Positions 2,086-4,867 of a stretch of 64,000 nucleotides of DNA are shown here, piece by piece. Under the pieces are notes generated by a model, which did not search any database, had not been told where the DNA came from, and worked only from the letters and a program-made list of their open reading frames with translations. Numbering within the stretch: position 1 is the first letter of the stretch; every line of letters begins with the position of its first letter. Both the position numbers and the translations under genes were made by a program. The stretch covers positions 2,560,001-2,624,000 of the forward strand of contig CM000151.3 in NCBI GenBank assembly GCA_000004695.1. The letters run 5' to 3'. The DNA is from Dictyostelium discoideum. Lineage: Eukaryota.

Positions 2086-4867
2086 ATGGGTAAAGGAAGT
2101 GGAGCTCCTTTAAAGGAGAAAGTTTATCCATCTGTTATGTATGGAAATATTAAACCAATTAGAAAACAACCAAAATCATTACCAAAAGAATTAACTATTG
2201 ATCAAATTTTACAATCTCTTCCAAAAGAAGTTTTTGAAACAAGTAATTTTAAATCAGCATGTTCACTTTTAATAACAATCTTATTCATTGGTTTAAGTGC
2301 AACATTCATTACTCTCATGCCATCTTACTTAACCCCAATTGGTTGGATGTTAATGGGTGCCTCAGTTACTGGTGTAAGTAATACAATTATTATTCATTCA
2401 TTTTTTATTATTTCCATTTTCACTTTTTTTTTATTTTTTTTAAACAAAATTTTTTTTTTTTTTTTTTTTCTGAAAGTGACTTGAAATTTTCAAGTGGGAA
2501 AAAAAAAAAACCGTCACAGTTCCAGACTACCAAATTTTTTTTTTCAATCACAATGATTGTTATTTTATTTTTTTTTTGATTACCATCAAAAAAAAAAAAG
2601 CACCCATTTTACAAAAACAAAAAAAAAAAAAAAATAATAATTAAAAATAATTAAAATTTTTTTTTTTTATTTGCATCTTTTTTTTTTTTTTTCCAAAATA
2701 TCTAATCACTAACCCAACAAAACTTTTTTTTTATTTTTTATTTTTTTTTTTTTTTTAATATCTTTTAAAATATGACAACCTCTCACACTAATAGTTAATG
2801 GTAATTGGTAATGATTGTATTCATAAAACTTTTTCAAAGAATCCATTAGTTAATTCAATTATTGGAACAATTGTAATGTTACCATTGTTATATCCATTCC
2901 AATCTTACAAGATTTCAGAAAAGAATAATGCAGAAAAGAAATCGACAGCTGTTTTAAATGGTGAACAATTCAAGATTAATGCACATACCACAACCGAAAG
3001 TACAAATCCAATTAGACAATGGGCAACTGGTAAATTCTTTTGGATTTTATCAATTATTAATTGGTCTGAAAATTATTTCTCAACTAAAAATTTATCAGAT
3101 AAAAAAGATAAAACCAAAGCAATCGTTTCAATTGCAATTGTTTACATTTTTGGATTTATTTTCTTCCCAATGATGTTTAAATTTGTAGGTGTAAGTGGAT
3201 TCCTTAATTATTGGTTCGCACCATGGTTAGTTTTACATTTCTTACTTTCAACTGCTTCATTATTACCATCAATTCCATTTTATGAAGAATTACAAGTTGC
3301 TTCAAAATTAGAAAAATCAAATAATAATAATAACAATAACAAAGGTGATAAGAAATCATCTGAAGTTGAAAAATATTTAGTACATATTACATATCCACAA
3401 TGGTTTGAATTTATTGTTAAAGATATTAATTTTTCATTACCAAGACAAATTGCAGTTTCAATTCCACATTATAATCTAAGAAAAGCTTATAATTCATTTA
3501 AAAAGAGTTGGGGTGAATATATTTATGAATGTACATTTGAAACTGAATTATTTAAAGAATTAATTATCCGTAGTGAAAACTTTTCAAATGAAATTTTCTC
3601 ACCATTTGATTCAGCTCCATTGGTACCAGATCAAGAAAAGAAAGCAGAAGCAACCGCTGAAGCCGTTTCAAATAGTCGTACAAGTCGTACTGTTAAAGAA
3701 TTTTTAAAATCAATCAATTGGTTACATGTTATCATTTTAATTGGTATTCCATTCATTGGTCTCTATGGTCTAATTAATGTAGAGTGTTCATTGAAAACAT
3801 TTATTTGGTCATTTATTTATTATCATTTCACTGGTATGGGTATTACAGCAGGTTATCATAGACTTTGGGCTCATAAGGCTTATAGTGCAGTTTTACCAGT
3901 TCGTATTATCTTGTTGCTATTTGGTGCAGGTGCTGTCGAAGGTTCATGTCGTTGGTGGTCAAGAGATCATCGTGCTCATCATCGTTATCTCGATACTGAT
4001 AAAGATCCATATTCAGCTTCATTGGGTTTCTGGCATTCCCATTTCATTTGGTTAATGTTCAAACAAGATCCAAAGAAAATCGGTAGAGCAAACATTGACG
4101 ACCTTAACGCCGATCCATGGGTTATGTGGCAACATAAACATTACATTAAAATCGCCACTTTTATGGGTCTCGTTTTCCCAACATTGGTAGCTGGTTTAGG
4201 TTGGGGTGATTGGGCTGGTGGTTATTTCTACTCTGGTGTACTTCGTCTCGTTACAGTTCAACATTCCACATTCTTGGTCAATTCATTGGCTCATTATTTA
4301 GGTGACTCTCCATACGATGATGAACATACTCCAAAGGATTCAGTTGTGACTGCTATATTAACATTTGGTGAAGGTTATCATAACTTCCATCATGAATTCC
4401 CAAATGACTATAGAAACGCTTATAAATTCTATCAATATGATCCAACTAAATGGTTGATCTCTGCAATGTATTATTTAGGCTTGGCTTATGATTTGAAAAC
4501 TTTCTCCAAAAATGAAATTGAAAAAGGTATGATTCAAATGCACCAAAAACATTTAGACGCAAAGAAACAATCAATCTATTGGGGTATCAATAAAGAAGAT
4601 TTACCATCAATGACAATCGATGAATTTAATAATTTGGTTGAAAAAGAAAATAAAAAGTTAATGATAATCAACAAAACCGTATTAGATGTCGAATCTTTTG
4701 TTAATGATCACCCAGGTGGTTTAGCTTACATTAAAATGGGTATTGGTAAAGATGCAACTTCAATGTTTACTGGTGAAGTTTATGCTCATTCAAATGCTGC
4801 TAAAAATTTATTATGTCAATTTTCAATTGCTAAAATTGTTGATAATCATGATAAAAAACAACAATAA
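2086..4867 (+). CDS. Two-exon gene, join(2086..2373,2795..4867), about 786 aa. It is a fusion of three parts. First, an N-terminal FAD2/Delta12-desaturase-fold membrane domain in which all three histidine boxes are degenerate. Second, an OLE1-type Delta9 acyl-CoA desaturase with intact His boxes. Third, a C-terminal cytochrome b5 (HPGG) domain.
   Basis: Exon 1 (MGKGSGAPLKEK..MGASVTG) ends at a GTAAGT donor at 2374. The acceptor is ATAG at 2791-2794, which is also an in-frame TAG. Exon 2 starts LMVIGNDCIHK.

The spliced product matches the FAD2 N-terminus by eye: MGAGGRM..CVLTG | IWVIAHECGHH. The FAD2 His boxes are replaced: HECGHH becomes NDCIHK, HRRHH becomes EKNNAE, and HVAHH becomes LPRQI upstream of the retained ..SIPHYN...GEYIY tail.

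The same ORF runs on with no stop into INWLHV..GITAGYHRLWAHKAY..WSRDHRAHHRYLDTDKDPYS..GEGYHNFHHEFPNDYRNAYKFYQYDPTK, which is near-identical in pattern to yeast OLE1. It then continues into VNDHPGGLAYIKMGIGKDATSMF..HS, a cytochrome b5 heme-binding motif. TAA is at 4865-4867. Confidence 0.8.

Follow-up and report, generated by a model that had tools for sequence, protein, structure and literature searches.

Why should an apparently active fatty acid desaturase carry a second, apparently dead desaturase domain at its N-terminus? The question is raised by a gene on the plus strand at 2086-4867 of the 64,000-nucleotide (nt) Dictyostelium discoideum stretch analysed here (contig CM000151.3, positions 2,560,001 to 2,624,000; hereafter the window). 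An earlier note, made from the letters alone, had read this locus as a single gene in which a FAD2-like domain stripped of its three histidine (His) boxes continues through a coding-like linker of 45 residues into an intact Delta9 desaturase with a C-terminal cytochrome b5, an architecture it took to be undescribed. Splicing as proposed there, from the donor GTAAGT at 2374 to the acceptor at 2794 (AG 2793-2794, within TAG 2792-2794), joins exons 2086-2373 and 2795-4867, running from the ATG at 2086 to the stop codon at 4865-4867, and yields a product of 786 amino acids (aa). The splice proved exact: an exact-sequence look-up found the product to be letter-identical to the public protein XP_644535.1 / EAL70609.1 / EAL70770.1, "delta 9 fatty acid desaturase [D. 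discoideum AX4]". The proteins of the window are likewise identical to AX4 proteins.

A Pfam scan of the whole product finds two FA_desaturase domains and one Cyt-b5 domain. The N-terminal 393 aa submitted alone still match FA_desaturase with 43.2 bits (expectation value E 5e-11) against a cut-off of 29.7 bits, and Foldseek and phmmer agree, so that the proposed desaturase-fold similarity of this region is well founded. The N-domain (residues 1-372) matches catalytic omega-6 desaturases by phmmer with E 1e-41 to 1e-54. It aligns end to end with DesA/FAD6 omega-6 desaturases at 30-37% identity, and has in common with them not only the LPKEVF start and the IPHYNLR...WGEY tail but also the two transmembrane hairpins and the DC of box 1. 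The FAD2-like assignment, by comparison, does not survive: instead of HECGHH, HRRHH and HVAHH, the closest catalytic relatives carry HDCGH, HNxHH, HHTAPH and HVPHH, and among the best 149 matches of an exhaustive phmmer search (1.84 billion representatives, 531 matches) HDC[GA]H is present in 73 and HECGH in 9. The named catalytic relatives are omega-6 or Delta12 acyl-lipid desaturases, or cyanobacterial. The motifs and names of its relatives hence set the N-domain apart from FAD2 of the endoplasmic reticulum (ER) and place it with the DesA/FAD6 (omega-6) type.

The three His boxes are degenerate at the positions previously indicated, although their loss is not total, since the second His of box 1 (H106) survives. 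It is the only one of the eight canonical box His to do so; the other seven are now N, E, N, A, S, R and Q, and a four-residue deletion takes out HHTA of the additional conserved HHTAPH motif. When the comparison is widened to the 12 His columns that are invariant in four catalytic homologues, two are retained (H106 and H244). Membrane desaturases need all eight box His. With seven of the eight canonical iron ligands gone, the N-domain is therefore predicted to be unable to desaturate: judging from the residues that remain, a di-iron site cannot form, as had been claimed, and the domain is a degenerate derivative of DesA/FAD6 rather than an enzyme member. It further differs from DesA/FAD6 desaturases in lacking a transit peptide and in being joined to a second desaturase.

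That second desaturase has all of its motifs. HRLWAH, HRAHH and HNFHH are present in canonical order and spacing, and the eight box His are invariant across an alignment of 23 fusion proteins, as are the haem ligands H735 and H761 of the cytochrome b5 domain. The Delta9 part matches the solved SCD1 structure 4ymk_A by sequence (E 5.5e-58, residues 404-670) as well as by fold, and residues 396-786 are 55-59% identical to fungal acyl-CoA Delta9 desaturase-b5 enzymes. Fungal OLE1-type Delta9 desaturases (S. cerevisiae Ole1, Mortierella, Aspergillus) agree with this segment in their three His boxes and their C-terminal HPGG-containing b5, but are 400-510 aa long and lack the ~370-residue N-terminal pseudo-desaturase domain. 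Both the intact Delta9 domain and the OLE1-like b5 of the earlier note are thus upheld, while its 45-residue linker shrinks to a poorly conserved stretch of about 23 residues (373-395). The Delta9 part presumably makes the 16:1 and 18:1 Delta9 acids of Dictyostelium.

Table 1. Features of the desaturase fusion gene, in window coordinates
Feature	Position	Strand	Remarks
Exon 1	2086-2373	+	288 nt, codons 1-96; N-terminus and first transmembrane hairpin of the pseudo-desaturase domain
Intron, phase 0, GTAAGT...TAG	2374-2794	+	421 nt, 17% GC
Rest of DesA/FAD6-like pseudo-desaturase domain	2795-3622	+	residues 97-372; second transmembrane hairpin, conserved C-terminal SIPHYNLR...WGEYIYEC region
Degenerate His box 1, NDCIH for HDCGH	2810-2824	+	residues 102-106; first His lost, H106 kept
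Degenerate His box 2, EKNNA for HNxHH	2918-2932	+	residues 138-142; three His lost
Degenerate His box 3, SLPRQ for HVPHH	3434-3448	+	residues 310-314; three His lost
Inter-domain linker	3623-3691	+	residues 373-395; fast-evolving, dN/dS 0.38-0.56
OLE1/SCD-type acyl-CoA Delta9 desaturase	3692-4576	+	residues 396-690; Pfam match residues 434-661
HRLWAH	3857-3874	+	residues 451-456; intact
HRAHH	3968-3982	+	residues 488-492; intact
HNFHH	4379-4393	+	residues 625-629; intact
Cytochrome b5 domain and stop codon	4577-4867	+	residues 691-786; Pfam Cyt-b5 E 1e-12, residues 711-777
HPGG	4709-4720	+	residues 735-738
GC, guanine plus cytosine; dN/dS, ratio of nonsynonymous to synonymous substitution rates.

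We determined dN/dS by the Nei-Gojobori method for D. discoideum against three congeners. The N-domain gave values of 0.036, 0.065 and 0.048 for the three species pairs, the Delta9 domain 0.068-0.074, the cytochrome b5 domain 0.11-0.14 and the linker 0.38-0.56. Identity to the Polysphondylium violaceum protein is 74.5% in the N-domain and 67.8% in the Delta9 domain, and the N-domain remains 57-64% identical to that of Acytostelium, the non-membrane cytosolic segments included. These values argue that the dead N-domain is not decaying, its purifying selection being as strong as that on the catalytic domain or stronger. We put the probability of the reading as a whole, the anatomy described above together with a selected, non-catalytic role for the N-domain, at about 0.7.

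The fusion is not a one-off. Many of the 531 matches are 640-834 aa long with the match at their N-terminus, and the succession of N-domain, Delta9 desaturase and b5 recurs in the D. discoideum protein XP_636528.1, P. violaceum, Physarum, Stenamoeba, the heterolobosean Willaertia magna and about a dozen environmental eukaryotes. It is a family found across Amoebozoa, Heterolobosea and other eukaryotes. A word-indexed protein search, with either the N-domain or an 18-sequence N-domain profile, recovered nothing but Acytostelium and stand-alone omega-6 desaturases, and overlooked every fusion protein. The second D. discoideum paralogue, XP_636528.1 (Q54IE9, 701 aa), has the same three-part architecture; it differs in having a more degenerate N-domain (GYACGND; one of the 12 His) and a Delta9 part that is only 47% identical. 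Dictyostelid, Physarum and Willaertia N-domains retain 0-3 of the 12 His, and fusions below the Stenamoeba type 0-4 overall. Stenamoeba and two environmental proteins retain 8, with boxes 1 and 2 kept and box 3 reading (Q/L)xPHY, and a single protein, P0033, retains 11. In a neighbour-joining tree of the Delta9-b5 parts, which has long branches and carries no support values, the fusions form a grade with the stand-alone enzymes of fungi and Planoprotostelium nested inside.

P0033 (L006 2477-4396, a Logan SRR28397937 contig) is the only fusion found with all His boxes (HDCAH, HQHHH, HHRHP, HVPHH), and may be a genuinely bifunctional tandem desaturase; its Delta9 partner lacks a cytochrome b5. 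The 7-kb contig holds seven same-strand intronless open reading frames (ORFs; MFS-like, RING finger and orphans) at 33-39% GC, and has the look of giant-virus DNA or of a very compact eukaryotic genome. Another family member, P0136 (L007 5001-7049, ENA ERZ28548055), comes from a eukaryotic genome that is compact and apparently poor in introns; its neighbours on the 138-kb contig are a mitochondrial carrier, phosducin, SSNA1, a peroxidase and HSP70. In P0114 (682 aa, from a marine metagenome/transcriptome), a degenerate DesA/FAD6-like N-domain precedes a cytochrome b5, after which comes a front-end desaturase (HDAMH, HVIGHH, QIEHH). Catalytic desaturases of more than one type have therefore served as fusion partners of the pseudo-domain.

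An AlphaFold2 model of the full protein, built from 23 sequences, has a mean predicted local distance difference test score (pLDDT) of 72.7 and a predicted template modelling score (pTM) of 0.47. Foldseek matches the model to SCD1 (E 9e-16, target template modelling (TM) score 0.75-0.81), to the FAD6-like chain 8xks_K (E 8e-11, target TM score 0.66) and to cytochrome b5 structures, so that in the model the protein comprises three folds, two of desaturase type and one b5. The two desaturase domains and the b5 come out reasonably well, whereas the linker is modelled as disordered (pLDDT <50 for residues 354-394). A membrane desaturase has four transmembrane helices with both ends cytosolic. With two such four-helix units in tandem, the Delta9 active site and the b5 would therefore both stay on the cytosolic face, a topology with which hydropathy and the model are consistent; we infer about eight transmembrane helices and a location in the ER.

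The ancestor of the N-domain would have been an active acyl-lipid omega-6 desaturase of the cyanobacterial or plastid DesA/FAD6 type, and the original fusion was probably a tandem enzyme that worked in two steps, introducing first the Delta9 and then the omega-6 double bond. The omega-6 activity would since have been lost in lineages such as Dictyostelium, which fits the observation that D. discoideum makes 9-16:1 and 5,9- and 5,11-dienes and no linoleate (PMC11900508). Selection would then have kept the N-domain as a non-catalytic four-helix membrane module, tethered covalently to the active enzyme. Physarum produces linoleate although the N-domain of its fusion is degenerate, and another enzyme must therefore carry out that step. 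Most likely the N-domain serves as an intramolecular pseudo-dimer partner, still folded as a desaturase and probably still in possession of its tunnel for the acyl chain. Through a bound acyl chain or lipid it would act on the Delta9 domain, whether to stabilise it, to position it or to regulate it; the earlier note had conjectured a regulatory, substrate-presenting or oligomerisation module. Taken by itself, this specific pseudo-dimer or acyl-binding mechanism is a tentative proposal, more likely wrong than right in its details.

We favour a pseudo-dimer or acyl-binding module on the strength of the fold, the lost ligands, the covalent tether and the purifying selection, which are shown, and of topology and precedent. 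Chlamydomonas FAD6a/'FADL' (PDB 8XKS chain K) belongs as a structural subunit to the Orf2971-FtsHi chloroplast import motor; its His boxes are only partly conserved, no iron density was seen and a fatty-acid-shaped density occupies the pocket (bioRxiv 10.1101/2024.09.02.610899). It is the sole solved structure to match the N-domain by sequence (E 1.5e-10) and is among the best by fold. Like the N-domain it is FAD6-like with degenerate boxes (AHECAMMRF; MLPQA); it differs in being a separate protein of the plastid inner envelope within an import complex, unfused to any active desaturase. The His losses of the two differ in detail and are probably independent. Furthermore, FAD2-FAD3 desaturase heterodimers channel substrate according to Lou, Schwender and Shanklin 2014, as cited in PMC6314118. 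Such an association of two membrane desaturase folds that pass on a product, as described there, could serve as a model for an ancestral covalent Delta9/omega-6 tandem, although it is non-covalent, both partners are active and both act on lipid-linked substrates.

It is unlikely that the N-domain goes further and acts as a built-in lipid sensor, tuning the Delta9 domain allosterically through a bound acyl chain or lipid, and that P0033 and the Stenamoeba-type relatives are, in turn, true tandem Delta9 and omega-6 enzymes channelling 18:0 to 18:2. If the sensor proposal were true, amoebae would own a self-contained feedback device for membrane fluidity, a task for which yeast is presumed to employ separate sensors, Mga2 among them.

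Several observations count against a selected module derived from a tandem enzyme. In the apparent Tieghemostelium lacteum orthologue identity is only 33% in the N-domain, which carries deletions, but 57% in the Delta9 part; constraint on the N-domain is therefore lineage-dependent, not universal. The stand-alone Delta9-b5 enzymes of fungi and of the amoebozoan Planoprotostelium do without the domain altogether. P0033, the sole fusion with a fully intact N-domain, has no b5 and may be an independent fusion. The AlphaFold2 model shows no confident inter-domain packing (pTM 0.47), so that a pseudo-dimer interface is hypothetical. The D. discoideum fusion is known here from genomic DNA, the transcripts coming from other species. 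Finally, simple channelling in the ancestor is less obvious because the two kinds of enzyme have different requirements, glycerolipid substrates and ferredoxin for DesA/FAD6, acyl-CoA for the OLE1 type.

Should the N-domain then be regarded as a functionless, slowly decaying relic, kept only for its start codon and first membrane-insertion signals? Its lost catalytic residues, the wide variation in degeneration across the family, the eroded T. lacteum domain and the enzymes that manage without one are all what such a relic would predict. A relic is nevertheless hard to reconcile with N-domain rates that in three species pairs do not exceed those of the catalytic domain, when the adjoining linker evolves at 0.38-0.56, or with the identities to P. 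violaceum and Acytostelium, since the upkeep of hydrophobic helices alone would not conserve so much. We consider it quite improbable.

The same strong purifying selection could be taken to mean that the N-domain is still an enzyme, using non-canonical metal ligands or catalysing another reaction of the chemically versatile desaturase/hydroxylase superfamily. D103, C104 and H106 of box 1 are conserved, as are H244 and H293, and the weak NCBIfam matches include a hydroxylase. Those matches (GntB hydroxylase, bacterial DesA/DesB) are, however, the only ones that the NCBIfam scan of the N-domain gave, and all lie far below their cut-offs (36 versus 380 bits). The box replacements differ from one fusion protein to another, hence no alternative ligand set is apparent. 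With seven canonical box His replaced, the HHTAPH motif deleted and Delta12 products absent from Dictyostelium lipids, a cryptic enzyme is very improbable.

The integrity of the gene itself leaves the least room for doubt. No stop codon separates the domains. Linker GC is 33.8%, within the 26-34% of the coding part, as against 13-17% in flanks and intron and 22% in the whole window, so that the linker is coding-like as earlier described. It contains no AATAAA, and its longest A/T run is 11 nt compared with 34-54 nt in the adjoining non-coding DNA; neither a stop nor a poly(A) signal divides the two halves. Met is absent from the product between residues 223 and 444; a complete Delta9 enzyme is therefore not translatable alone, and we reject an internal start codon for a stand-alone Delta9 enzyme. 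A single ORF also spans both domains in D. citrinum, D. dimigraforme, D. firmibasis, P. violaceum and Acytostelium subglobosum. The two-exon structure, with the intron at the identical codon, recurs in the first four of these, and orthologues of 770-786 aa are known from the three Dictyostelium species among them and from further D. discoideum isolates. In Physarum polycephalum, Stenamoeba stenopodia and another eukaryote the full-length fusion is one assembled transcript each. The public A. subglobosum model is a 337-aa 'partial' that ends after the N-domain; ORF 6715-8457 of L001 (from DF837575.1; gene region L001 6001-8457) reads from the pseudo-domain into Delta9 and b5, and that model is therefore truncated. 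That the fusion is an annotation or assembly artefact, with adjacent genes joined wrongly or transcribed separately from an internal promoter, as the genomic origin of the D. discoideum model and the short A. subglobosum model might suggest, is barely credible given the ORF unbroken in six dictyostelid genomes, the transcriptome-derived fusions, the composition of the linker and the Met-free interval. Mis-joined neighbouring genes are rejected in view of the unbroken ORF, the coding-like linker GC and the continuity in related genomes, and the single-gene claim stands.

The public gene models of both the Acytostelium and the T. lacteum orthologues look wrong. For T. lacteum (LODT01000025.1, L008 2001-4201), the first transmembrane hairpin can still be read in frame, but the 669-aa model seems to remove it by splicing. 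In D. discoideum, the same protein appears under two AX4 accessions, EAL70609.1 and EAL70770.1, which suggests that the gene lies within a duplicated segment of the AX4 genome; the strain may have two copies.

At 421 nt the intron is long for Dictyostelium. It contains a non-A/T island at 2470-2535, CTGAAAGTGACTTGAAATTTTCAAGTGGG(A)nCCGTCAC with short inverted repeats, and a second element, a TACCATCAAA motif at 2581-2591. Island and motif are largely kept in the orthologous introns of D. citrinum and D. dimigraforme, and partly in that of D. firmibasis, whereas the remaining intron is not. An Rfam scan of window positions 1-12000 gave no matches, so the island is not a known RNA. Island and motif may constitute an intronic regulatory element.

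The gene and its Pfam domains are already public, and the gene itself is not new. We found no publication, within an incomplete coverage of the literature, that describes a second, degenerate desaturase domain in the Delta9 desaturases of Dictyostelium or any other organism. In that sense the architecture seems undescribed, as the earlier note supposed; it is not confined to one gene, given the paralogue and the Physarum, Stenamoeba and Willaertia proteins. The main classification of membrane desaturases left out proteins of >550 aa (PMC5037126). That exclusion, together with automatic annotation that says only "delta 9 fatty acid desaturase", amounts to a blind spot. What emerges is a pseudoenzyme module, itself conserved, on an enzyme central to lipid metabolism.

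In almost every eukaryote Delta9 desaturases determine how fluid the membranes are; their regulation and membrane organisation are still being worked out. The system is tractable, with Dictyostelium genetics and yeast ole1 complementation both usable. The family provides a natural experiment on desaturase dimerisation and channelling, and a clean case of a pseudoenzyme domain arising from an active partner, for which intact, half-degenerate and fully degenerate stages are all available.

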